From sequence record KJ190158: a stretch of DNA of 64,000 nucleotides. One strand, given 5' to 3'. Source of the stretch: Escherichia phage FFH2. The first letter of the stretch is position 1, and each line of letters opens with the position of its first letter. Shown piece after piece: positions 3,697-61,418 of the stretch. The notes below the pieces were generated by a model. It made no database searches and had not been told where the DNA came from. It saw nothing but the letters and a program-made list of their open reading frames with translations. The translations under genes were made by a program, and so were the position numbers.

Positions 3697-4310
3697 TGGA
3701 TATTATTGTTCTTAACGCCCCACCCAGCAGTGGTAAGGATCACATTGCAGATCTCTTGTTGGAAGCTATTCCTAACTCACACCACCGCGAGGTTAAGGAG
3801 ATGCTCTTTAGTGTGGCAATTAAGGCAGCTGGTGTAACTCCTCAACTCTGGAATGCACTTTATGACCGCCACTACAAAGAAGAGCCTTGCCCTTTCTTAA
3901 TGATAGACGGCAAGCATGTTTCTCCGCGAGAATGGATGATCCATTGTAGTGAAAATCTGATTAAACCTATCTTTGGTGAAGATGCTTTCGGTAAAGCCGC
4001 AGTCGCATCTTTGAAGAAAGATTTCCCTAAAGGTAAAGGGGTTGTTGTTTACTCCGATGGTGGATTCAAAGAGGAGCTGGCATGCCTTAGCGAGTACGCA
4101 TACAGCACAGGTGGAGATCTGTTGTTGTTCCGTATTCACCGTGTCGGATATGACTGGGGAAATGATTCCAGAACCTATCTAAGTCTGGAAAAGAACGGAA
4201 TAAAAGGAATTGAGTTTGATGTTGTAAACCCTGAAGGTGCACCTTGGGAATGTGCATCGGAGATTGTGTGCAAGTATATTGATGCTAAAGAGGCCCAAGA
4301 AGAATGTTAA
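3696..4310 (+). CDS. P-loop kinase, probable deoxynucleoside monophosphate kinase
   Basis: The N-terminal IIVLNAPPSSGKDHIADLL P-loop is arranged as in T4 gp1 and T5 dNMP kinases. GGAGG SD upstream. The gene sits in the nucleotide-metabolism cluster. Confidence 0.5.
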   Translation: MDIIVLNAPPSSGKDHIADLLLEAIPNSHHREVKEMLFSVAIKAAGVTPQLWNALYDRHYKEEPCPFLMIDGKHVSPREWMIHCSENLIKPIFGEDAFGKAAVASLKKDFPKGKGVVVYSDGGFKEELACLSEYAYSTGGDLLLFRIHRVGYDWGNDSRTYLSLEKNGIKGIEFDVVNPEGAPWECASEIVCKYIDAKEAQEEC

Positions 4311-4897
4311 TCGGAATTGATGTAGATTTGACACTGGTAGATTCAGGAACAGCATGGTGGGAGTGGTTGGAGCGTTTGTATGGTCCAGCCAGTAAGACAG
4401 TCGCTAAACCTTCTAATGGACTGATGTATTACGATCTGTCAAAGTATTGGCCTGATCGCCCCAAAGAAAACATCATAGGGCCTTTTGATTTCTGGAGTGA
4501 CCCATTCCTCTACGACTTTCTTAAGCCTGAAGAGGGGGCTATTGAGGTTATGAAAGATTTGGTGGCTCGTGGTCACAAGCTTGCATTTATCTCGGTATGC
4601 AAGAAAGGTCACCTTGCATCTAAATCAAGGTTCTTAAAGCGTTGGACCAGTGATTTTATGGATCTGGACGATCACACCCAGGGTCACGGCTTCTACGCCA
4701 CACATTTCAAAGGAAATGTGGCTGTAGATGTTATAATTGACGACAGGCATGAATACCTTAACCAATTCGCTTCACGACCTGAAGTTATTAAAATCCTAAA
4801 AGATACGCCTTATGAGCAATTCGAGGAGTTAAAGGTCAGTGTTGACTATACCGCTAATAGTTGGTATAAAATAGGAAAGTTTTTAGAAGGTATTTGA
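4304..4897 (+). CDS. HAD-superfamily phosphatase, 5'(3')-deoxyribonucleotidase-like
   Basis: N-terminal GIDVDLTLVD (DxDxT nucleophile motif) and a later VIIDDRHEYL (DD motif). Size and context match phage deoxyribonucleotidases. Confidence 0.55.
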   Translation: MLIGIDVDLTLVDSGTAWWEWLERLYGPASKTVAKPSNGLMYYDLSKYWPDRPKENIIGPFDFWSDPFLYDFLKPEEGAIEVMKDLVARGHKLAFISVCKKGHLASKSRFLKRWTSDFMDLDDHTQGHGFYATHFKGNVAVDVIIDDRHEYLNQFASRPEVIKILKDTPYEQFEELKVSVDYTANSWYKIGKFLEGI

Positions 4898-4898
4898 A

Positions 4899-5099
4899 AT
4901 GGGCAGATGTTCTAAAGGTGGCGATCCTGTAGTCAGATACGGTGACTGGCTGGAGGTATATGATCTGGGGGGTAAGCTAGTGTATGCCTCCAGGATCACC
5001 CAAGATATGTGCTCTGATATGTTTAACAGATACCTTGCATTTAAGGCCAATATAAACCCAGACGAAATTTCCAAAATTAAAACAAGGAGAGCTAAATAA
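4899..5099 (+). CDS. hypothetical protein
   Basis: 66-aa ORF between two enzymes, with an AGAAGG SD. Its stop overlaps the thyX start. Confidence 0.5.
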   Translation: MGRCSKGGDPVVRYGDWLEVYDLGGKLVYASRITQDMCSDMFNRYLAFKANINPDEISKIKTRRAK

Positions 5100-6082
5100 T
5101 GCTAAAACTGTGCACTGCAAAGATCATTGCTGACAGCATTTCCGAGAAAGGTAAGCGTATCACCACTTTTGAACTAGAGTATCCTCGAATTATTCACTCA
5201 GAGCTTATGACGCACCGAGTATTCAGCCGAAACGCCATGTCTTCCCGTGCAGTGCCTGTCGGCAAGATGCTGCAGCAGATTGTGGAGAATCCGGCAATGC
5301 CAGTTCGCTTCGGTGTAAATAAGCGAGGGATGGAAGATGGTGGGGAACACGATCAAAAGATCCGTGTAGAGTACACTGACATGGAGCTAACCCCTGAAGA
5401 GTTTTGGAAAGAAGCTGCAAAAAACGCCGCTTGGCATGCAGAGAAGTTCGCCCTTGCTGGTTACCATAAACAAGTATGTAACCGCTTAGTGGAGCCGTTT
5501 CAGCGCATGAAAACAGTTGTAACAAGCACAGAGTGGAATAATTTTTTCCATCTCCGTTGCTGGCACGATGCGGATCCTACGATTCAGATGTTGGCTAATT
5601 GTATGTGGGAAGCTCTTGTGAATAGCACTCCTGAAATCCTTAAACCAGGTCAATGGCACACTCCATATGTAGAGCACGTTTATTTGGACGGAGAGTTTAA
5701 CTACGCTGTACGTGACACAGAAGGAAAGCTCTGCATTCTTGATACTAAAGAAGCTCTGTCTATTAGTGCTAGTTGCTGTGCACAAGTATCTTATCGAAAT
5801 ATTGACAGCACGTTTGAAAAGGCAGACAGTGTGGCTAAAAAATTGATTGGTGGGGATCGTATTCATGCAAGCCCTTACGAACACCAGGCAACACCTATGG
5901 ATCATGATAACGCAATGGAACGTTTAAACTACTACCTATCTTCATGTGAAATCACACAAGACATTAGTACTTGGCAGGAAGGTGTAACCCATCAAGACCG
6001 TGATGGTAAATTCTGGTCTGCCAACTTTTGTGGGTGGGTTCAGCACAGACAACTGCTTAATAACCACTTCGTGAAAGGTTAA
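5099..6082 (+). CDS. thyX: FAD-dependent thymidylate synthase ThyX
   Basis: HSELMTHRVFSRNAMSSRAVP matches the ThyX signature RHRxxSxxxxSxR. AAGGAG SD upstream. Confidence 0.9.
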   Translation: MLKLCTAKIIADSISEKGKRITTFELEYPRIIHSELMTHRVFSRNAMSSRAVPVGKMLQQIVENPAMPVRFGVNKRGMEDGGEHDQKIRVEYTDMELTPEEFWKEAAKNAAWHAEKFALAGYHKQVCNRLVEPFQRMKTVVTSTEWNNFFHLRCWHDADPTIQMLANCMWEALVNSTPEILKPGQWHTPYVEHVYLDGEFNYAVRDTEGKLCILDTKEALSISASCCAQVSYRNIDSTFEKADSVAKKLIGGDRIHASPYEHQATPMDHDNAMERLNYYLSSCEITQDISTWQEGVTHQDRDGKFWSANFCGWVQHRQLLNNHFVKG

Positions 6083-11462: not shown

Positions 11463-12260
11463 TAACAAACTGGCCGTTGTAAAACTCTCCTAACCTCATA
11501 AGAGGGGTCGGTAAATCCGGCTAACGGGGAACGCTAAGGCGAAAGCTATGCCAATCCCGTGACTAGTTCTTACAGGAGTTGGAACGGTTGTAACGACTAA
11601 CGAAAGGCAGAGATGCTTGACAAACATTTCTGAACCAAGTAGTGTAGAGGTTAGTTGAAATACTAACTTCGAAATGGAGAGGCTCTATGAAAAAGATCAT
11701 TCTTAATGGTGAAGAATCAAACTATGTGATTGATGAGGTTGGAAACGTATACGGAAAACGTGGAATGCTACACCCAATATTGTGGGGAGGTTATGGAAAA
11801 GGTAACAAGCATGTTAAACGCCGTTATATGTACTCTTTCAACCACAAAGGTAAAAAGATTCGAATCCAAACCTCAAGGATTGTTGCCTTGTATTGTTTGC
11901 CAGATGTCCCAGAAGACCCTGAAAACTGGGAAGTGAATCATAAAGACGGCAATACATTGAATGATCATCCGTCTAACCTAGAGTGGGTTTTGCCGGAAGA
12001 TAATAAGAGACATGCTTTCCGAACAGGGCTTTGCCCAGGCAAGTGCTATAGGAAAGTGCAGGCATACAAAGGGAAAACCTTGGTGGGTGAATATCCTTCA
12101 CTCTATGCCTGTGCAAAAGCCTTAAATTTGAACGTAGGTAACGTTCATAGGGCTATCGAAGGAAATGCCGAAGGTAAGCATCTCACAATAAAGGGTTATT
12201 ATCTTATTGAAGTAGAGTAAGAGATAGTCTGGCCCTGTGGAAACACAGGGGAGGAGACAG
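11463..12260 (+). mobile_element. Group I intron in nrdD carrying an HNH homing-endonuclease ORF
   Basis: The exon end CAACGGU can pair with the intron GCCGUUG (11475-11481) to form P1 with a U.G wobble at the splice site. The intron ends in G (12260). P7 candidates are GACUA (about 11565) and UAGUC (12225-12229). Joining 11462 to 12261 gives NTLTSVNG|QTPFITLSLGLDTS, matching E. coli NTLHTANGQTPFVTFGFGLGTS without a gap. Confidence 0.85.
11687..12220 (+). CDS. HNH homing endonuclease (intron-encoded)
   Basis: VNHKDGNTLNDHPSNLEWV is an HNH motif. A C-terminal NUMOD1-like HTH is present (YPSLYACAKALNLNVGNVHRAI). The ORF lies entirely inside the nrdD intron. Confidence 0.85.
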   Translation: MKKIILNGEESNYVIDEVGNVYGKRGMLHPILWGGYGKGNKHVKRRYMYSFNHKGKKIRIQTSRIVALYCLPDVPEDPENWEVNHKDGNTLNDHPSNLEWVLPEDNKRHAFRTGLCPGKCYRKVQAYKGKTLVGEYPSLYACAKALNLNVGNVHRAIEGNAEGKHLTIKGYYLIEVE

Positions 12261-13523
12261 CAGACTCCATTCATCACATTAAGTTTAGGACTGGATACCT
12301 CGGTCTTTGGTAGAATGATTACCAAAAATTACTTGAAAGTCCACAAAATGGGTCTTGGTGAAGAACGTATCACACCTGTGTTCCCTAAAGTGCTGTTCTT
12401 CCTAGAAGAGGGTGTCAACATGAACCCTGGAGATCCTAACTATGATTTGAAAAGATTGGCTCTGGAATGCTCTGCAGAGCGGATTTATCCTGACTTTGTT
12501 TCTGTTCCACTAAATCGTAAAGTGACAGGCTCGACAGATGGTAAAGTAACGAGCATGGGTTGCCGGAGTTTTCTTAGCAAATACAATGACTTGGAAACAG
12601 GCGAGGAGAAATACCTTGGCAGATTTAACTTAGGCGTTGTTAGCCTTAACCTGCCAATGATTGCGGCAAAAGCTAAAACGGAAGGTGTTGATTTCTTTGC
12701 AGTTCTTGACGAATACTTGGATCTTGCATACGAGGCTCACCTTGTAAGGGTTAACCGTCTAAAAGGAACAAAGGCAGGGCAGAACCCTATCATGTGGTGT
12801 GAAGGCGCTCTTGCTCGCCTGGATCCTGAAGAGAGTATTGATAAACTCTTCTATGACGGGTACGCTTCCATCAGTATTGGGTATATTGGTGTGTATGAAA
12901 CCTGTCAGATTTTGGGCAGAGAGGGTGACAAGGCTTTAGCTCTTGGAATCCTTCAGCACATGAAAGATGCTTGTGAGCGATATAAGAAGGAAAGTGGACT
13001 AGCATTTAGCTTGTACGGCACCCCTTCTGAGAGTTTATGCTATAAAGCTGCAACCTGTCTGGATCGTGAATATCCAGAAGTGTTGAAGCACGAGCATGAA
13101 TACCTCACCAACAGTTTCCATCAGCCAGTATGGATCAATAGTTCACCTTTTGATAAGTGGAAGTATGAAGAAGGTTTTGCTATGATCTCTTCTGGTGGCA
13201 ACATTGGATATATAGAGACACCTAACCTGAAAAACAACCTGGATGCTTTAGAGGCTCTTGTTGACTTCGGGTATAAACACATTATGTATTTTGGTATTAA
13301 CCAACCTGTGGATAAATGTCTCAAGTGTGGTTTCTCTGGTGAGTTCAGTGCAACAGCTAAAGGCTTTGTATGCCCAGAGTGTGGAAACCATGAAGAGGGA
13401 ACGATCAGTGTAATTCGACGTGTGTCCGGATACCTTTCCAGTCCTAACTCCCGTCCTTACAATAAAGGTAAGCAAGCGGAAGTTATCGAGCGAGTTAAGC
13501 ACTATGGAAGTTGTAGTTGCTGA
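12261..13523 (+). CDS. nrdD: Anaerobic ribonucleoside-triphosphate reductase, exon 2
   Basis: Colinear with the E. coli NrdD C-terminal half. It has a Zn ribbon (CLKCGFSGEF...CPECGN) and the glycyl-radical motif RRVSGYLS. Confidence 0.9.
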   Translation, partial: QTPFITLSLGLDTSVFGRMITKNYLKVHKMGLGEERITPVFPKVLFFLEEGVNMNPGDPNYDLKRLALECSAERIYPDFVSVPLNRKVTGSTDGKVTSMGCRSFLSKYNDLETGEEKYLGRFNLGVVSLNLPMIAAKAKTEGVDFFAVLDEYLDLAYEAHLVRVNRLKGTKAGQNPIMWCEGALARLDPEESIDKLFYDGYASISIGYIGVYETCQILGREGDKALALGILQHMKDACERYKKESGLAFSLYGTPSESLCYKAATCLDREYPEVLKHEHEYLTNSFHQPVWINSSPFDKWKYEEGFAMISSGGNIGYIETPNLKNNLDALEALVDFGYKHIMYFGINQPVDKCLKCGFSGEFSATAKGFVCPECGNHEEGTISVIRRVSGYLSSPNSRPYNKGKQAEVIERVKHYGSCSC

Positions 13524-27462: not shown

Positions 27463-27768
27463 ATGGCTAAATCTAAAGTTGAACTGTTCACCTCTCTTCC
27501 TTCTGACACTGCAGAGCGTGATCGCCTTCGCAAAACAATCGAAGAACTGGTGGAACTCCAACTTCAGATTAAAGATCTGAAAGATGCCATTAAGGATATC
27601 ATTCTCGTTGAGAAGCAGGATCACCTGTATTCTCCTAAATTCATCAAATCTCTGGTTGCTACCGAGTTTGATATTCGCTATGAGGCTGAAAAACGTCGAG
27701 CTAAAATCGAAGAAGAGGTTGAGCACATGTCCGAGGCAGACATTCTGTTCAAACGCTCTGTAGAATAA
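27463..27768 (+). CDS. hypothetical coiled-coil protein
   Basis: 101-aa ORF with an AAGGAGA SD. The heptad-rich pattern weakly resembles GapR/DUF2312-type DNA-binding proteins, but I would not rely on that. Confidence 0.6.
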   Translation: MAKSKVELFTSLPSDTAERDRLRKTIEELVELQLQIKDLKDAIKDIILVEKQDHLYSPKFIKSLVATEFDIRYEAEKRRAKIEEEVEHMSEADILFKRSVE

Positions 27769-27823: not shown

Positions 27824-28156
27824 ATGGGTATACCGATCACTGTAAAAGAATTGAATGAACGTGATGCAGGTGGTCTATGGCCTGCACGAAAAATACGCTG
27901 CATCCGTATGAAAGAGAACCTTGAGCATCTTGAGCAACAGAAACGGATTGAGGTTGGCGATATTTTCGAAGTATTTTATTCTGATCGCCGTAACTGGGAA
28001 ACCATTCAACCTTCCGGTTTTGTTCTTGCTAAGCTTGACACTGGAGAAGTGATTGTTCCTGGGTTGGATATTGTCTTCGAAATTATACAGGAGTGGGATC
28101 CGGACAAGATTAGATACGAAGAGCTATTCGGTGAAGGTATTATCAAACCTGTGTGA
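27824..28156 (+). CDS. hypothetical protein
   Basis: ATG 27824 is preceded by GGAGGAG. Confidence 0.55.
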   Translation: MGIPITVKELNERDAGGLWPARKIRCIRMKENLEHLEQQKRIEVGDIFEVFYSDRRNWETIQPSGFVLAKLDTGEVIVPGLDIVFEIIQEWDPDKIRYEELFGEGIIKPV

Positions 28157-28164
28157 GGTGGATT

Positions 28165-28464
28165 ATGTCTACAAAGGCGGCTAAATACTCCTATATGCCA
28201 TCAACCTCTGCAGAGGTAGACTTTAGTTTCGATGTGTTTCCACTGTTTGAGGTGGTTCTGGCATACCCAACAATACTATCTACTCCTGAATCACTTGTGC
28301 CTGTTAAGTTGCAGAACGCTATGCATTACATGCACTACAACAACAAATGTAGGCACAGATGGTGTCAGGACGAGGAAAAAGATTTGGATAGTTTGAGAGA
28401 TTTTGACAGTCACCTTTTGACACCTTTCAGCTACTCCAACCTTGATAAGCCCTCGTGGGTATAG
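28165..28464 (+). CDS. hypothetical protein
   Basis: ATG 28165 is preceded by GTGAGGTGG. Confidence 0.5.
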   Translation: MSTKAAKYSYMPSTSAEVDFSFDVFPLFEVVLAYPTILSTPESLVPVKLQNAMHYMHYNNKCRHRWCQDEEKDLDSLRDFDSHLLTPFSYSNLDKPSWV

Positions 28465-28488
28465 CAAAATATCAAATTTAAGACACCT

Positions 28489-28515
28489 AGGACGCTCTGT
28501 GGCGTCCTTTTCTTT
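28489..28515 (+). terminator. rho-independent terminator
   Basis: AGGACGC-tctgtg-GCGTCCT followed by TTTTCTTT. Confidence 0.75.
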
Positions 28516-28738
28516 ATCTGGTGCACGATTGCATACCTTGGGTAGTTAATCTCATTACAGAGCGTTTAAGAGCTCCCTACAAACAACTCCATATTTCGAG
28601 CGTAGCGAGAACGCACGTCCGTTTTGACCCAAATCACCATACGCTCGGATTTTAACCAAACCCTCGCGGCGTTTCTGTGGACACATTACCGATCCAGTGA
28701 TAGTATCCACACATAGTTTGTAGAATATGGAGTACACA

Positions 28739-28828
28739 ATGAGAACATTGTCCGAAGTTTTAGTGGTGATCCTGATGATCATTACGTCCATAGCGGCTGT
28801 TGCCGGAATACTCACGGGTGGAACATGA
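28739..28828 (+). CDS. hydrophobic micro-protein (29 aa)
   Basis: MRTLSEVLVVILMIITSIAAVAGILTGGT. The stop overlaps the next start (ATGA). Below the ORF-track cutoff. Confidence 0.4.
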   Translation: MRTLSEVLVVILMIITSIAAVAGILTGGT

Positions 28829-29037
28829 TCAACACACATGCATCTGAAGAGACATCCGAAGGAGTTACCATCTGTCCCTTGGCTGAGCCAGTGAAAGAGG
28901 AAAACTTCGATTCTGAAGATTATCCATCTCCGTCCCAGGTAGATCCTGAGGCTGATGACCTAACGTGGGAAGACATCGTAGATATCTGGTTCTCTATTAT
29001 GCCTGAGCACGAAGAGTTCAGGGGTGGTAGACTATGA
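28825..29037 (+). CDS. hypothetical very acidic protein (70 aa)
   Basis: Rich in D and E (EENFDSEDYPSPSQVDPEADDLTWEDIVD). Confidence 0.5.
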   Translation: MINTHASEETSEGVTICPLAEPVKEENFDSEDYPSPSQVDPEADDLTWEDIVDIWFSIMPEHEEFRGGRL

Positions 29038-29156
29038 AGCACCGAGCCCACACAGGTTCCTCATACTAAAGCATGGCCTGAAGAGGCAAACGTGCATAAT
29101 TCCTGCGCATTTGGACGTATAATCCTGTTCACACTCTCATTTCCAGAGGAGATTTT

Positions 29157-29372
29157 ATGAAGATAGAAATATTTGGTGGAGCTGACAACACTCGTGGCCT
29201 GATTTACCTTGAATTTGATGAATCATACCTGCCAGAGGTGTTAAATATAGACTCTGTTGCTGAGGCTTTGGGAGTAAACCCTAAAGAACTCCACTCTTGT
29301 GCTGAGATCGATGGTTGGGAAGAGACCATGAACATTGATTTCAGTGAAGTAGAGGATGAACCGCTGGACTGA
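29157..29372 (+). CDS. hypothetical acidic protein, last plus-strand gene
   Basis: MKIEIFGG...EVEDEPLD with an AGAGGAGA SD. Confidence 0.55.
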   Translation: MKIEIFGGADNTRGLIYLEFDESYLPEVLNIDSVAEALGVNPKELHSCAEIDGWEETMNIDFSEVEDEPLD

Positions 29373-29499
29373 CACACAATTAGCTGCCCGGCTAAAGTGC
29401 TGGAAGCACCTATAACACATCTTTCAACTAAATTTCCTACCACCACAATCACTTACCTCCCACACATGACTGTTTGCTTGTTTAGTGAGCAGTCATGCC

Positions 29500-29527
29500 T
29501 TGACATTCTTGCCTATCCTGATAAAAT
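29500..29527 (+). promoter_or_regulatory. sigma70-like promoter firing into the ORF-free region
   Basis: TTGACA-16 nt-TAAAAT, just after a CATGACTG...CAGTCATG hairpin (29465-29497). There is no ORF downstream for about 2.3 kb. Confidence 0.5.
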
Positions 29528-30842
29528 TAAGTTCTTCTCTTTTCTTTTACCGAGTAATTCGGGTTTTCTGTTCTCTTCGGTTTGAAGGGGTATAGAGATA
29601 CACCTGAGTGAACAGGGTGAACAACCGAACATTTGGCTATGGCATTAGCATGGCGAAGCGGACGGGTGACGAAAGAGGGGCCGGAGGACACCAGTCACTG
29701 CCATATGATATATGGGTGATAACCTGAAGAGTCTGAATAAGTGTTTAAGTACCAGTCAGAGGAAAAGGTGAATGGTAGCCGAAGGGGGAGGGGGGTTTCT
29801 TGTATCTTTAATTTGTATATTATGTATACACTTGTAAACCAATCTCATCTGAATTTGTTTACCACACAAAGTGGATAGGGACAAATATTACCTATTAAAC
29901 TTGAATTATTTATAGAAATACCACAACACCACTTAAGTCTTTGATTTTACACACAAATCCTACAGATATTCACCCTCCATATTTAACATACCTGTAACAT
30001 ATTCCATACCCTACCTGACCGATCAATTCACCCAACTACATCCCCATATTTTCCCTGTCTGTACTACCCCTGCCCCGCCGGGAGTCCCGTCATATCTGGC
30101 TTTCCAGCAAATATCACACCCACAAATATCATTGCCTGAAGAGGGTTTCATCCCATAATACATGCCTTACCTGAAGAGCGCTTCATACACCACGTAAATT
30201 TTTTAATTGACCCCCTCCCCGCCGCCGGAGAGGTTGGCTTTTCCCACACAGACCTGAAGAGTCAGCCAGAAATATCTGAACAGGTCCAGCTATGCCACGA
30301 TTTTGTGCTTGTCCTACAGGAGTGCCTCCCTGTCAGGAGCCGGTAGCGACTGGAGTGCTGCCAGGCGGACGAAATGGGAATCATTCTCATTCTTATAACA
30401 ATTCTCAAATATCGAGGCAGTGAGGCAAATTAATAGGTGAGGCCGTTCACACAATGGCACAACATTTGCAACCTATCTTGTGGGAGTGAATGAGAATACC
30501 TATCATTGTGAGAATAGTTATCATTACGGGCAATTTAACATAATACCCATTATGCGCACCACTGGCGATCCATACAGGGATTGATAACATGGGTTACTGT
30601 TTACACACATAACAATTATATTTCTTACTATTTGTGTGGGATATAGTTAGCAGCCGATAGATTAGATATTGACCTGTAGACTTCCAACCGTCCAGACGTC
30701 TAAACGCCCACACAACAAGGGTTATACATACACAACTGAATGTAAACAGGGCCGCAAAAATGCTACCATACAAGCTTGTAAATTTTTCATGCAGCACTTG
30801 ACAAAGAGGAGGAAAACTTGTCTGACACTTTAGACACAATAG

Positions 30843-31168
30843 TGACATAATATGACATAATGGTGACACTGAACATAATTGACATGCCTGACTGTTTACA
30901 TAGCTAACTATTCATACAGAAATGATAAGCCATGCCATTCGTTTGCATGATAATAATTAACTTGTTTACAATAGATGACATAATATAAAAGCAGGGCAAC
31001 TATTAGAAGATCTATAGTTGCCTTGCTTGTTATGTCATGATTAACTAAATACAAGGCAACTATGATCTGATTAATAGTTTGCAGACAAACTATCACGGGG
31101 GTGATGGTTACTGCTTTTATATTATGTCGCGACTCCGTCGCGCCATGCCATTCGTTTGCATAGTTGCC
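30843..31168. repeat. cluster of three short repeat families (TGACATAAT, GGCAACTAT half-sites, 20-mer GCCATGCCATTCGTTTGCAT)
   Basis: TGACATAAT at 30843, 30853 and 30976, plus inverted near-copies at 31029 and 31121. GGCAACTAT/ATAGTTGCC at 30995, 31014, 31055, 31074, 31086 and 31160. The 20-mer at 30929-30948 and 31142-31161. Confidence 0.8.
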
Positions 31169-31778
31169 TTATTGTTACAGATAAAATAATTGTATTGTTA
31201 ATTATTTCTTATCTTTCTCTTAGTCATCTAATGATTCCAGTCAGTATAGTAATGTACAGTAAACATTAGACGACTAAAGATTTCTCTGTTTATTATAACT
31301 TACCGTGACAATTTCAGGCTGTTTACGAAAAATGTTGACACCTGGGCCGATTTATGTTATGCAGTTTACACGAATAATTATTTTATGCAGGTATTGACTA
31401 TTCCGTTATTCTATGGTTGGAATAAATACTTAGCAGACTATAGAATGGTGAGCGTACGTAAATTCTGAGATCTGGCGGCTATAGTTATACTCGATTTTTC
31501 ACGTAGAACACGCTTTTGTTAGTGTGTAAGTGTATGACTTATAAAGATTTTTAGTTGTTGACAAGATATTGAAGATGTGCATCAGGTTAAATTTTGTGCA
31601 ATAGCGGCATTACGTGCAATTTTGAGAGAGAAAACGGGTAAAAATGGCCTTGCTATCACACAATGAAAAATTATGCAATAGTTATTTTACATGTATGTTT
31701 GTACAGTGTGTGGGATTGATGGCTAGTCAATTATTCCACTTGCCAGGCTGGGCCGTTTGTGGTAGGAGAAATACAGAC

Positions 31779-31806
31779 AAAAAGAAAGGGGCCTTTTAAA
31801 GCCCCT
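31779..31806 (-). terminator. rho-independent terminator ending the minus-strand small-gene block
   Basis: Minus strand: GGGGC-tttaaaag-GCCCC followed by TTTCTTTTT. Confidence 0.75.
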
Positions 31807-31824
31807 GATAGTTTAGTTAAGAAA

Positions 31825-32244
31825 TTATAATGATTCGTATATTTCATAGATTCGATTTGCCAGGTCGTTACGGTAGCGGAATTTTTCCTCACGTTTGATC
31901 ATCAGATCTTTAAAGCCATATTCTTTAAGCACTTCATTAACTTTATGGCGGCATACCTTCATATTATCCTGTGCGTCACCAATAAACCTGTTGCTATGGT
32001 GCATGGCTTTAATTTCTTCTTCCAGGACCAGAGCAACTATGCGGACCGGATCAAGCTGATAGGCGGTAACATCCATGCGGCATTGTAAACGACTTTTTAC
32101 GTCTGCCACCGGATATACTGCAACCTCTTCCCCGTCAACATTGACAATAATTAGTTTACCATCGATTTCGAATCCTTTCGCCGCCGGACCGTGACAAAAA
32201 GCGTTATCAAAGCTATATGCCGGATTATTAGATTTAATGTTCAT
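31825..32244 (-). CDS. hypothetical protein
   Basis: 139-aa ORF with an AAGAGGTAAAA SD and its own promoter upstream. Confidence 0.6.
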   Translation of the reverse strand: MNIKSNNPAYSFDNAFCHGPAAKGFEIDGKLIIVNVDGEEVAVYPVADVKSRLQCRMDVTAYQLDPVRIVALVLEEEIKAMHHSNRFIGDAQDNMKVCRHKVNEVLKEYGFKDLMIKREEKFRYRNDLANRIYEIYESL

Positions 32245-32293
32245 GGTGTTTTTACCTCTTAGTTAATTTTCTTACAACTTCCCTTCAAAAAAG

Positions 32294-32322
32294 AATATAG
32301 CAAAACTGCCGATCCTTGTCAA
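32294..32322 (-). promoter_or_regulatory. sigma70-type promoter
   Basis: Minus strand: TTGACA-17 nt-TATATT. Confidence 0.65.
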
Positions 32323-32390
32323 CCAAGGATAGCATAATTTTTATGTGATCAAGGGGCTTTATTGCCCCCCTGATCGTGCAACTTGTTGTA

Positions 32391-32654
32391 TTATTTGTTG
32401 CTCATCCAGTTTTCCCAAGCTGCCTGATAATCTGCCTCACTGCGGCGGATCTCTTCTTGTTCTTCAAGCCGGATCTCTTCTTCCAGGTACCCCAGGATAT
32501 CGGCTTTTTTGGTCTGGCGTAACATCCAATCATCTTTTTTACGAGTAAAGATCTTATAAGCTTTCTCGCAAACCTCTTTTTTGCTACCTTTTTGGACTTC
32601 AAGAACACGATAAGCCATATATTGAACTAGTTTGAGCTGGTCAAGACGTTTCAT
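32391..32654 (-). CDS. hypothetical protein
   Basis: 87-aa ORF with an AAAGAGGAAAA SD preceded by a GGGCC-aaaa-GGCCC hairpin. Confidence 0.6.
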   Translation of the reverse strand: MKRLDQLKLVQYMAYRVLEVQKGSKKEVCEKAYKIFTRKKDDWMLRQTKKADILGYLEEEIRLEEQEEIRRSEADYQAAWENWMSNK

Positions 32655-32714
32655 AGTGTTTTCCTCTTTGTGCGGTTCTGATTAGTGGGCCTTTTGGCCC
32701 GTGTCATTATCTTA

Positions 32715-32987
32715 TTACTTATGGCGGCAGAATTCAAGCGTTTTTAATTGATAATCTTCCTCAGCCTGGAGTACTACCGCCTCGATCATTTCGTTGGCAT
32801 TGTTAAAGCCATAACCTTTAGCGAACTCATCCGCGCCACCTTCGTGATCATGTTCTGCGTTCATCGCTTCCACAAAATGGAATTCCAAATTGTTGAGGTA
32901 GGGGCTTGATGTTCCGTCCTCTTTTTCGATGAGATCCCAGATAGCATTAAAACGTGATTCGACTTCTTGATTAATCCAGCTTGACAT
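32715..32987 (-). CDS. hypothetical acidic protein
   Basis: 90-aa ORF with a GAGAGGAAAA SD preceded by a GGGCA...TGCCC hairpin and a TTGACA-17-TAACAT promoter. Confidence 0.6.
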   Translation of the reverse strand: MSSWINQEVESRFNAIWDLIEKEDGTSSPYLNNLEFHFVEAMNAEHDHEGGADEFAKGYGFNNANEMIEAVVLQAEEDYQLKTLEFCRHK

Positions 32988-33095
32988 AATGTTTTCCTCT
33001 CTTCTGGTTGTTGTGTGGGCACTTTTGCCCCTTCAAGATAAATGTTACCCCACCCCCTGGCAGATGTCAACGGTTTTTATAGTTCTTATATGACA

Positions 33096-61076: not shown

Positions 61077-61418
61077 CTACTCAAGGTCTTCAGAGTCAAG
61101 CTCAAAAAGAATCAAACTGTGCATGCCTGCAGAGAGATCAACACACCCTGCAACAATAAGGGTCTGATAGTAAGGTTCAGCACCCTCAATGTCTTCGTTA
61201 AAATCTACAACAAGATAGTCACCTTTGTTAAAGGTGTATTTGTCCGATGTAAACGCAAAACCTGCCCAGTCCCCGACTGCAGGATCTTTATCAGTCACCT
61301 TTGTTAGCAGCAGGTCTTTTTCACGAGATCTTTTAGTAAAATCGTGAATCACAACATCCTTCTCTTCAGGAGTTGGATTGCCACACACGTAGTTAACTAT
61401 ATTTCTCCACAAACTCAT
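61077..61418 (-). CDS. hypothetical protein
   Basis: 113-aa ORF whose start overlaps the helicase stop. Confidence 0.55.
   Translation of the reverse strand: MSLWRNIVNYVCGNPTPEEKDVVIHDFTKRSREKDLLLTKVTDKDPAVGDWAGFAFTSDKYTFNKGDYLVVDFNEDIEGAEPYYQTLIVAGCVDLSAGMHSLILFELDSEDLE

Follow-up and report, generated by a model that had tools for sequence, protein, structure and literature searches.

A conserved strand-polar nine-base word beside the terminal repeat of Vequintavirinae phages is a probable recognition signal of the right chromosome end

To characterize a repeated element of Escherichia phage FFH2 (sequence record KJ190158), we analyzed a stretch of 64,000 nucleotides, referred to below as the window, in which the nine-base word CCTGAAGAG is clustered on one strand next to the predicted end of the phage chromosome. 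Our analysis indicates that CCTGAAGAG is very probably a conserved strand-polar recognition word of a control region at the right end of the virion chromosome. The window belongs to a Vequintavirus (an rV5-like coliphage), and the region of the cluster matches 120 phage records at ~88-96% identity. Five exact copies, numbered 1 to 5 from left to right (Table 1), lie on the + strand within ~1.2 kb, with spacings of 646, 412, 35 and 83 bp, and all five are intergenic. A first-pass annotation of the window had already pointed to five such intergenic 9-mers on the same strand; all of its positions were confirmed, and a check of the annotation showed the sites to be free of open reading frames (ORFs).

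In total, the window holds nine matches to CCTGAAGAG, while 0.67 +/- 0.80 are expected from dinucleotide-preserving shuffles; the shuffle maximum was three and none of the 100 shuffles reached nine. The four matches outside the cluster (4526, 5393 and 12825 on the + strand and 61362 on the - strand) are all in-frame Pro-Glu-Glu codons on the coding strand (ORFs 4304-4897, 5099-6082, 12237-13523 and 61077-61418, with offsets divisible by three). The earlier description of the remaining copies as Pro-Glu-Glu codons within genes was thus correct, except that the fourth of them, at 61362, had been overlooked. When one or two mismatches were allowed around the array, only TCTGAAGAG at 28843 and TCTGAACAG at 30275 were added. 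As near-copies are so few, the cluster should be considered as a set of exact copies rather than as a graded family. Two copies have longer cores, CCTGAAGAGGGTTTCAT at 30135 and CCTGAAGAGCGCTTCAT at 30170, just as had been described, and a larger degenerate repeat, consisting of a C-rich box followed by GGCTTT, CACAC and CCTGAAGAG, is present twice in the window. From 30262 to 33000, no copy of CCTGAAGAG was found on either strand.

The position of the cluster can be understood by comparison to better described relatives. The map of rV5 shows a grey 'non-coding' box without ORFs at 104013-106618, between the convergent transcription units 82-163 and 164 onwards, for which the authors found no bidirectional terminator, and the GC-skew turning point of rV5 also falls in this region (PMC3606486). 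Copies 2-5 map inside the counterpart of this ORF-free stretch and copy 1 maps just before it. Direct terminal repeats (DTRs) of 458-459 bp were reported for the Vequintaviruses Gotham (PMC7471380) and EdH4/HdK5 (PMC6563267). The annotated 459-bp DTR of Gotham aligns to window positions 30364-30822 with 94.8% identity, and several independent GenBank records start at 30364 or stop at 30822. Judging from this alignment and these record ends, we thus read the rV5 'non-coding box' as the concatemer junction, with the DTR boundaries in the window being placed by homology. The junction is laid out as ~1 kb of unique right-end DNA (29373-30363), the DTR and ~1 kb of unique left-end DNA. Copies 1-5 lie 1287, 641, 229, 194 and 111 bp from the left boundary of the DTR, all leftward of it. 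Among the relatives, most of the non-coding region has an identity to the window of 0.84-1.0 per 30-nt bin; the exceptions are hypervariable patches directly outside both DTR boundaries (30300-30360 and 30823-30930), where identity is 0.39-0.70 as compared to 0.9-1.0 elsewhere. For the rightward gene block, no strong intrinsic terminator was predicted within the 1.3-1.5 kb that precede the DTR, and no tRNA or tmRNA was found. Nineteen GenBank records that match the region (~85-95%) are named 'Campylobacter phage'; the two that we inspected, A12a and A135, are marked UNVERIFIED and classified as Vequintavirus, and the host label of these records is probably wrong.

The first-pass annotation had stated beforehand that its proposal would fail if the motif were not conserved in position or number in related phages and showed no binding or modification. 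Conservation of position and number holds in 12 relatives, which retain four or five copies of CCTGAAGAG at the same places and on the same strand, and it also exceeds that of the flanks. Within 29038-30300, 4 of 45 motif columns are variable, as opposed to 332 of 1218 other non-coding columns (Fisher p = 0.005), and the per-cell divergence is 0.7% in motif columns and 5.1% in other columns. Copy 1 is invariant across the 13 aligned genomes, and copy 4 carries a point mutation in two of the 12 relatives. Sites also turn over: the relative L008 lost copy 5 by a point change, and the adjacent degenerate copy at 30275 there reads TCTGAAGAG, as it does in L011. In the complete genome of Gotham (137,025 bp), five copies are found at 135282-136466, with the right terminal repeat beginning at 136567, and CCTGAAGAG is, tied with one other word, the most clustered 9-mer of the genome. 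The count of motif enrichment over a full genome that had been proposed as a check was run in Gotham and yielded 8 + 1 copies, where ~0.4 are expected per strand. Two rearrangements at these sites were also seen. The relative L006 (IMG/VR 3300010279_000001) has a 46-bp insertion exactly inside copy 1, at window position 29081, flanked by duplicated AAGAG and containing its own GGTGAC/GTCACC hairpin. In phage I29 (ON286975; L015, locus 2058-2850), a 594-bp duplication spans copies 3-5 together with the left portion of the DTR and is joined via a perfect palindrome of ~100 nt, representing either a snap-back rearrangement or an assembly artefact.

The word is also found beyond the genus. When the window junction was compared by blastn to the junction regions of other Vequintavirinae genera, no similarity was found except for a gene of 139 amino acids. 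Despite this unalignable non-coding DNA, several short words recur in the same orientation across Vequintavirinae junction regions, and CCTGAAGAG is among the top 9-mers common to junctions of different genera. The further lineages that carry it are Seunavirus, Mydovirus and the unclassified A5-4/A73 group, where a copy lies at about -113. For Seunavirus and Mydovirus, ~65 records were found. Eight genomes share a conserved signature at the boundary, in which AAATATC follows G[AG]CGGAC at +43; these are the window, the Mydoviruses KPP-1, Mydo and K18PH07C1 and the Seunaviruses KE22, 4MG, GAP31 and PVP-SE1. The DTR of KPP-1 was determined with PhageTerm and spans 514 bp (PMC9862379); the signature coincides with its left end. 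Relative to this boundary, the eight genomes contain 31 forward copies of CCTGAAGNG, a few of which are coding (e.g., GAP31 -852 and -707), and all of these lie to the left (-1538 to -63), with none to the right. All six reverse copies lie to the right, those of Mydovirus just inside the DTR at +87 and +303. With forward copies on the left and reverse copies on the right, the word invariably reads in the sense direction of the converging transcription units, and each window copy is on the sense strand of local transcription. Taking together the conservation in 12 relatives, its excess over the flanks and the recurrence in three further lineages, a sequence-specific recognition word is well supported. 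The 'protein site or RNA motif' proposed by the first-pass annotation is hence upheld as to the word itself, while sequence alone cannot separate protein from RNA. Scans of IMG/VR added little: the pattern CCTGAAGAG-N20-45-CCTGAAGAG yielded >120 loci with spacings mostly in multiples of three, apparently coding repeats, and was uninformative; GACCTGAAGAGTCAGCC yielded 8 loci, the sole relative among them being already known; and a protein-anchored scan yielded 3 loci.

In other genera, several copies cap RNA-type hairpins and others lie upstream of a predicted start within a promoter-like site. Four contexts were distinguished, the first three in Seunavirus and Mydovirus. In context A, the word is the apex of a terminator-type hairpin, GGGAGCC-TGAAGA-GGCTCC with a T-run (-16.2 kcal/mol, z -3.8). 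In context B, it lies directly 3' of TTGA in a promoter-like site before a gene, TTGACCTGAAG[AT]GTCA...TATACT (10/12 matches). Context C is the element CACACAAAgggTTGACCTGAAGAGTCAGCCC after the last rightward gene, which combines a hairpin and a promoter-like site: the hairpin, GGGTTGAC-CTGAAGA-GTCAGCCC, has the word as its loop and a stem of 8-9 bp (-14.1 kcal/mol, z -3.7), and the promoter-like site is TTGACC-17-TATAGT/TATTCT. Context D is found in three Seunaviruses, where AAATATCCTGAAGAGGC lies 63 nt before the boundary in an imperfect palindrome beside AAATATC. In the promoter-like sites TTGACC-17-TATACT, TATTCT and TATAGT (10, 9 and 10 of 12 matches), the word abuts the -35 hexamer, with TTGAC directly followed by CTGAAGAG. 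In KPP-1, a terminator-like hairpin at 1983-2006 is followed by TTGACC-17-TATACT at 2038-2066, and 4MG and GAP31 have a like arrangement.

The window presents partial versions of these contexts. The only convincing hairpin is that of copy 1, which forms the apex (GAAG loop) of a 9-bp hairpin (-11.3 kcal/mol, z -3.1), without a T-run. Copy 2 shows no significant local structure (z +0.1). The small hairpin that the first-pass annotation had drawn at copy 4, TGAAG-agcg-CTTCA, does exist and is weak (-3.5 kcal/mol, z -1.1). The promoter-like site of copy 3, TTGCCT-16-CATAAT, scores 9/12, and copy 1 also has CATAAT at the offset of copy 3. A -10-like hexamer starts 18-19 nt after the start of the word at copies 1 and 3, at 2042 and 3000 in KPP-1, at 1685 in KE22 and at 1858 in GAP31; this fixed offset does not hold for copies 2, 4 and 5. 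Copy 3 shares the arrangement AAATATC...CCTGAAGAGG with context D. By their sequence, copy 5, within CACACAGACCTGAAGAGTCAGCC, appears to be a decayed counterpart of the context C element, and 30270-30283 appears to be a decayed counterpart of the context D element. A strong sigma-70-type promoter-like site, at 29500-29527, points toward the array and the DTR and lies in DNA that is 97-100% conserved. The suggestion that the copies belong to a single transcript is compatible with this site for copies 2-5, which lie downstream of it, and not for copy 1, which it does not cover.

As to function, CCTGAAGAG probably serves as a recognition word, read by a factor involved in transcription into the genome end or in the processing of this end. 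The exactness of the copies, their extra conservation, their survival of flank divergence, the strict polarity and the confinement to one end together point to a sequence-specific word with a reader of its own. As the copies lie on the sense strand, and as half of the conserved contexts are predicted transcription signals, we tentatively favor the view that CCTGAAGAG would be bound by a factor that controls rightward transcription at the right end of the chromosome. With copies spread over 1.3-1.5 kb and genes between them, the array also fits a local regulon more readily than it fits a compact packaging site. The factor, encoded by the phage or by the host, would recognize the word either as duplex DNA, at the -35 or spacer of rightward promoters, or as nascent RNA, at hairpin apices. 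Once bound, it would determine the extent of rightward initiation, termination or read-through over the 1.3-1.5 kb that lead up to the terminal repeat. Both the binding of such a factor and its effect on transcription are what we infer.

Several observations weigh against this transcription reading and should be considered. In the window, only copies 1 and 3 have a plausible promoter or hairpin context, while copies 2, 4 and 5 have neither and are nonetheless conserved. Among 49 distinct instances, a flanking stem of at least 4 bp is found in 16, compared to 13% in a flank-swapped null, and the pairing register of the hairpins differs between contexts. In 4MG, KE22 and PVP-SE1, the word is swapped as a block for GTAAACTG (TTGAC, then GTAAACTG, then TC), with TTGAC, the stem and the -10 hexamer unchanged, so that neither promoter nor hairpin needs the word. 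In the window and in Gotham, which were both checked, none of the many other intergenic regions carries the word, and it is thus not a general promoter or terminator element. Finally, the small proteins encoded nearby have no Pfam domain. As a possible binder, we also considered the gp153-like 'transcriptional regulator' (phrog_639, window 27463-27768). This protein is conserved throughout Vequintavirinae, but it shows no linkage to the junction in other genera and lacks a solved relative, and it is a candidate only.

Packaging or end processing is the strongest rival to the transcription reading and is, in our estimate, somewhat unlikely. Here, the reader of the array would be the terminase, through its small subunit or motor, or else an accessory protein. 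The array would act either as a loading site of the pac/cosB kind that serves cutting at the DTR or as polar 'end is near' signals for the translocating motor, in a multi-copy analogue of lambda cosQ. Such a role would account for the confinement of the copies, in four lineages, to the 1.3-1.5 kb that lead up to the DTR, for the lack of further non-coding copies in the whole Gotham genome and for the strict polarity toward the boundary, including the reverse copies of Mydovirus at +87 and +303. It is also in line with the copy at a fixed -63 in three Seunaviruses, at -111 in Vequintavirus and at -113 in A5-4, with the hypervariable DNA just outside both DTR boundaries and with precedents in other phages (short repeat arrays flanking the T7 terminal repeat, hexamer arrays of P1 pac and lambda cosB R sites). 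However, known terminase-binding sites are compact (< ~300 bp), whereas genes lie between the copies here, distal copies are found within a predicted terminator and a promoter-like site, and the distance to the boundary is not constant across genera (-63, -111, -316). The words that do hold a fixed position are G[AG]CGGAC at 0, in Vequinta-, Seuna- and Mydovirus, and AAATATC at ~+43, in every examined lineage with an identifiable boundary. The latter include Phapecoctavirus, where AAATATC lies at ~+42: Schickermooser has a 329-bp DTR, the gene of 139 amino acids and the AAATATC word, and no CCTGAAGAG. In addition, CAAAATATC is the 9-mer found in the largest number of lineages, Phapecoctavirus included. 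By position, AAATATC and G[AG]CGGAC are thus better candidates for a cut-site signal than CCTGAAGAG. A bolder version, which we regard as quite unlikely, would make the word a member of a novel class of polar signals for chromosome ends, which a translocating machine would read and which would prepare cutting or read-through at the terminal repeat. The reader would be either the packaging motor nearing a sequence-specific terminal cut or RNA polymerase with an antiterminator that binds hairpin apices, and the oriented array over ~1.3 kb would be a phage counterpart of KOPS or Chi.

The remaining explanations do without a dedicated reader or place the word in another process. It is unlikely that the copies are relics of duplicated cassettes (a terminator hairpin and an early promoter). 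On this view, a module would have been duplicated repeatedly at a hot spot of gene shuffling close to the chromosome end, and the 9-mer would be its best-kept core without a reader of its own. The hairpin-plus-promoter cassettes of Seunavirus and Mydovirus, which hold the word in both halves, the two sub-families with longer cores (CCTGAAGAGGC and GACCTGAAGAGTC(A)) and the degenerate repeat ending in CCTGAAGAG would all fit such an origin. So would the varying gene content between copies among genera and the clustering of indels and rearrangements here (the L006 insertion in copy 1, the I29 duplication and the loop swaps). Yet stems and hexamers in the window are decayed or variable, while the 9-mer is exact and significantly less variable than its flanks; the word has outlived a divergence that erased all alignable surroundings, and 9 bp are too short to be kept up by gene conversion. 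Iterons, or another replication-origin element bound by an initiator beside the AT-rich segment 29800-29960, are highly improbable. Origin-like features are indeed present, i.e. a strong promoter and a purine-rich RNA ending in GGGGGAGGGGGG, followed by AT-rich DNA, and the GC-skew turning point of rV5 is here (PMC3606486), but the spacing is irregular and wide, with no helical phasing or tandem array, one copy lies between genes 1.3 kb away and copies in other genera lie within predicted terminator and promoter-like sites. Only copy 2 is <100 bp from the AT-rich segment, and an iteron-type origin was therefore rejected.

A repeated RNA module, be it a ribozyme core, an antitermination hairpin of the nut/boxB type or a decoy (sponge) RNA like the pseudo-ToxI of PhiTE, is very improbable as well. 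The sense orientation throughout, the fit of CUGAAGA to the hammerhead CUGANGA box and the location of copies 2-5 downstream of the promoter-like site at 29500-29527 speak for it, as does the occurrence of CCUGAAGA in lambda nutL boxB. PhiTE further shows that this phage group can express a repeat non-coding RNA (PMC3475682). Against it, the copies have no Rfam family match, even at E <= 10, no common secondary-structure context and no boxA-like word; they are not tandem units of 34-36 nt, and those embedded in promoters lie upstream of predicted start sites. Its individual forms were also rejected. No hammerhead was matched in Rfam at the gathering threshold or at E <= 10, and the CUGAAGA...GAAA seen by eye at copy 2 has no stem I/III partner. 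For a lambda-type nut, no [CT]GCTCTT boxA is present in 28000-32000 and the loop differs from the GAARA pentaloop; a GAAG tetraloop is predicted only where G follows the word (copy 1 and KPP-1), and copies 2, 4 and 5 do not fold in this manner. As for a ToxI-type tandem array, Tandem Repeats Finder gives only 18-nt and 11-nt arrays elsewhere in the region. Two further candidates were dropped. The embedded CTGAAG, an Eco57I/AcuI site, is not depleted and follows the coding strand (52 + 51 in Gotham, with ~30 expected per strand), which does not suggest restriction-site avoidance or enrichment, and no Chi (GCTGGTGG) is found within the non-coding region.

No description of CCTGAAGAG or of cis-elements at Vequintavirinae junctions was found in the searchable literature, nor anything usable on Vequintavirus transcriptomics, and these elements are apparently undescribed so far. 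Short repeats beside terminal repeats and regulator boxes in promoters are known; what is new is the dispersed, one-sided conservation across genera. In T7, the short repeat arrays SRL and SRR reportedly flank the terminal repetition. They are dense, with about a dozen heptamers in ~150 bp on both sides of the repeat, and their function is still undefined. Our array resembles them as a short non-coding word in one orientation beside the short direct terminal repeat of a concatemer-packaged phage, the last exact copy being 111 bp from the boundary. It differs in being sparse, with five exact 9-mers over 1.2 kb, on one side only and with one copy between genes; arrays of the T7 type on both sides of the repeat were not found, as the right flank has a different array, TGACAY. 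The terminase recognition repeats of lambda (cosB R sites, cosQ), P1 (pac hexamers) and SPP1 (pacL/pacR boxes) are compact and of defined geometry. They are likewise short repeated words near a packaging cut and orientation-dependent, whereas the geometry of CCTGAAGAG varies by genus, and it is G[AG]CGGAC and AAATATC that hold fixed positions.

Promoter-early stem-loop (PeSL) cassettes are said to occur in T4-type phages; PeSLs share tens of bases and are spread throughout hyperplastic regions. The Seunavirus and Mydovirus combination of a terminator-type hairpin and a sigma-70 promoter between small early ORFs in a plastic region is similar, except that the shared core is only 9-12 nt and is confined to the final 1.5 kb of the chromosome. 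The window presents only partial versions of such cassettes, i.e. the hairpin of copy 1 without a T-run and copy 3 in its 9/12 promoter-like site. The MotA box of T4 is centred near -30, and the lambda Q-binding element lies between -35 and -10. An asymmetric word of ~9 bp at -31 to -23 of sigma-70-like promoters (TTGAC and CTGAAGAG, then TATAnT) is reminiscent of both, but most copies of the window lack promoter hexamers, the word is also found at the apex of terminator hairpins, and no MotA or Q homologue was identified. The pseudo-ToxI units of PhiTE fold as pseudoknots. Found in an rV5-like phage, pseudo-ToxI consists of tandem 36-nt units and is expressed as a repeat non-coding RNA (PMC3475682). 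It is, like CCTGAAGAG, a repeated intergenic non-coding element of the same phage group; CCTGAAGAG, however, is a set of dispersed 9-mers without a tandem unit.

Phages of the rV5 type (Vequintavirinae) are widely isolated and are studied for therapy and biocontrol, while the 2.5-kb 'non-coding' box of rV5 has been a blank on the map since 2013. Placing the chromosome ends in this box provides targets for the study of end recognition and cutting in myoviruses with short terminal repeats, and the same targets serve the study of how convergent transcription is stopped there and, possibly, of how replication starts. The target words, CCTGAAGAG, AAATATC, G[AG]CGGAC and the TGACAY array, form a small vocabulary that outlasts the surrounding similarity. 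A defined word for end recognition or regulation would also aid phage engineering, in terms of safe insertion sites and the packaging of synthetic genomes.

Table 1 Features of the junction region, in window coordinates.
Feature	Coordinates	Strand	Remarks
One-mismatch copy TCTGAAGAG	28843..28851	+	coding, near start of ORF 28825-29037; membership of the array uncertain
Copy 1	29077..29085	+	between small ORFs 28825-29037 and 29157-29372
Strong sigma-70-type promoter-like site	29500..29527	+	TTGACA-16-TAAAAT, TG before -10; 11/12 matches
Copy 2	29723..29731	+	within nearly invariant purine-rich stretch, downstream of promoter-like site 29500-29527
Copy 3	30135..30143	+	overlaps first hexamer of TTGCCT-16-CATAAT (30132-30159); two AAATATC words precede
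Copy 4	30170..30178	+	5' arm of weak hairpin TGAAG-agcg-CTTCA
Copy 5	30253..30261	+	within CACACAGACCTGAAGAGTCAGCC
Degenerate copy TCTGAACAG	30275..30283	+	immediately 3' of AAATATC
AAATATC words	30109, 30124, 30270	+	interleaved with copies 3-5; another at 30407 inside the DTR
Inferred DTR (physical chromosome ends)	30364..30822	.	left boundary GGCGGAC, AAATATC at +43

Further elements were observed around the junction. Upstream, rV5 annotation places a GTG start of gp158 (rV5 ORF 163) 6 nt after copy 1 (window 29092-29160). Copy 1 was accordingly considered as the ribosome-binding site of this longer gp158 and rejected, as indels of 1-2 nt near 29121 in relatives break the frame; translation probably begins at the ATG at 29157, with GAGGAG as its ribosome-binding site. 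The promoter-like site at 29500-29527 is succeeded by a small T-run hairpin (29550-29562) and then by 200 nt of almost invariant purine-rich sequence, which ends in GGGGGAGGGGGG and TTT (29784-29798); AT-rich DNA (27-31% GC) comes next. The stretch 29500-29960 could be a non-coding RNA or a transcript-primed origin of the R-loop type, and the G-run at 29784-29798 resembles mitochondrial CSB II. From 29900 to 30130, the + strand is strongly C-rich and G-poor (GC skew -0.6 to -0.8), and folding predictions for its RNA give hardly any structure (-2.6 to -11 kcal/mol per 120 nt). This segment resembles a rut-like tract at which Rho could load onto rightward transcripts, and it lies where the analysis predicts no strong intrinsic terminator. 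Twice (30066-30080 and 30210-30224), a C-rich box, ACCCC(T)NCCCCGCCG...GGAG, is found 50-70 nt upstream of a copy of CCTGAAGAG; Seunavirus and Mydovirus have comparable C-rich hairpin boxes 100-150 nt ahead of the boundary. Of the 32 copies of CACACA(A) on the + strand of the window, 12 lie within the 3 kb of 28708-31657; in all genera examined, this word is typically found just 3' of stop codons and just before hairpin or promoter elements.

Three KOPS-like words GGGNAGGG, at 29785 (+), 30068 (-) and 30213 (-), converge on a segment with TGTATATTATGT (29814-29825), which equals the core of E. coli dif; the whole window holds nine GGGNAGGG, with 4.7 expected. The label 'FtsK translocase' on a neighboring ORF of 87 amino acids was rejected, as it has no Pfam support and PHROGs gives no function. 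The right flank of the terminal repeat opens, at its first base, with a series of six TGACAY words that have a period of 9-11 bp (30823-30885). Tandem Repeats Finder reports an array with an 11-nt period at 30833-30868, and the TGACAY array is hypervariable among relatives; its - strand is similar to a TGTCAY array of the Pho-box kind. Beside the left chromosome end, the ORF of 139 amino acids (31825-32244, - strand) shares ~81-83% DNA identity with a gene of Phapecoctavirus, which belongs to a different subfamily, and of A5-4. In Phapecoctavirus, this gene likewise lies ~1 kb from the genome terminus, and its DNA identity and terminal position together suggest an exchanged end module.

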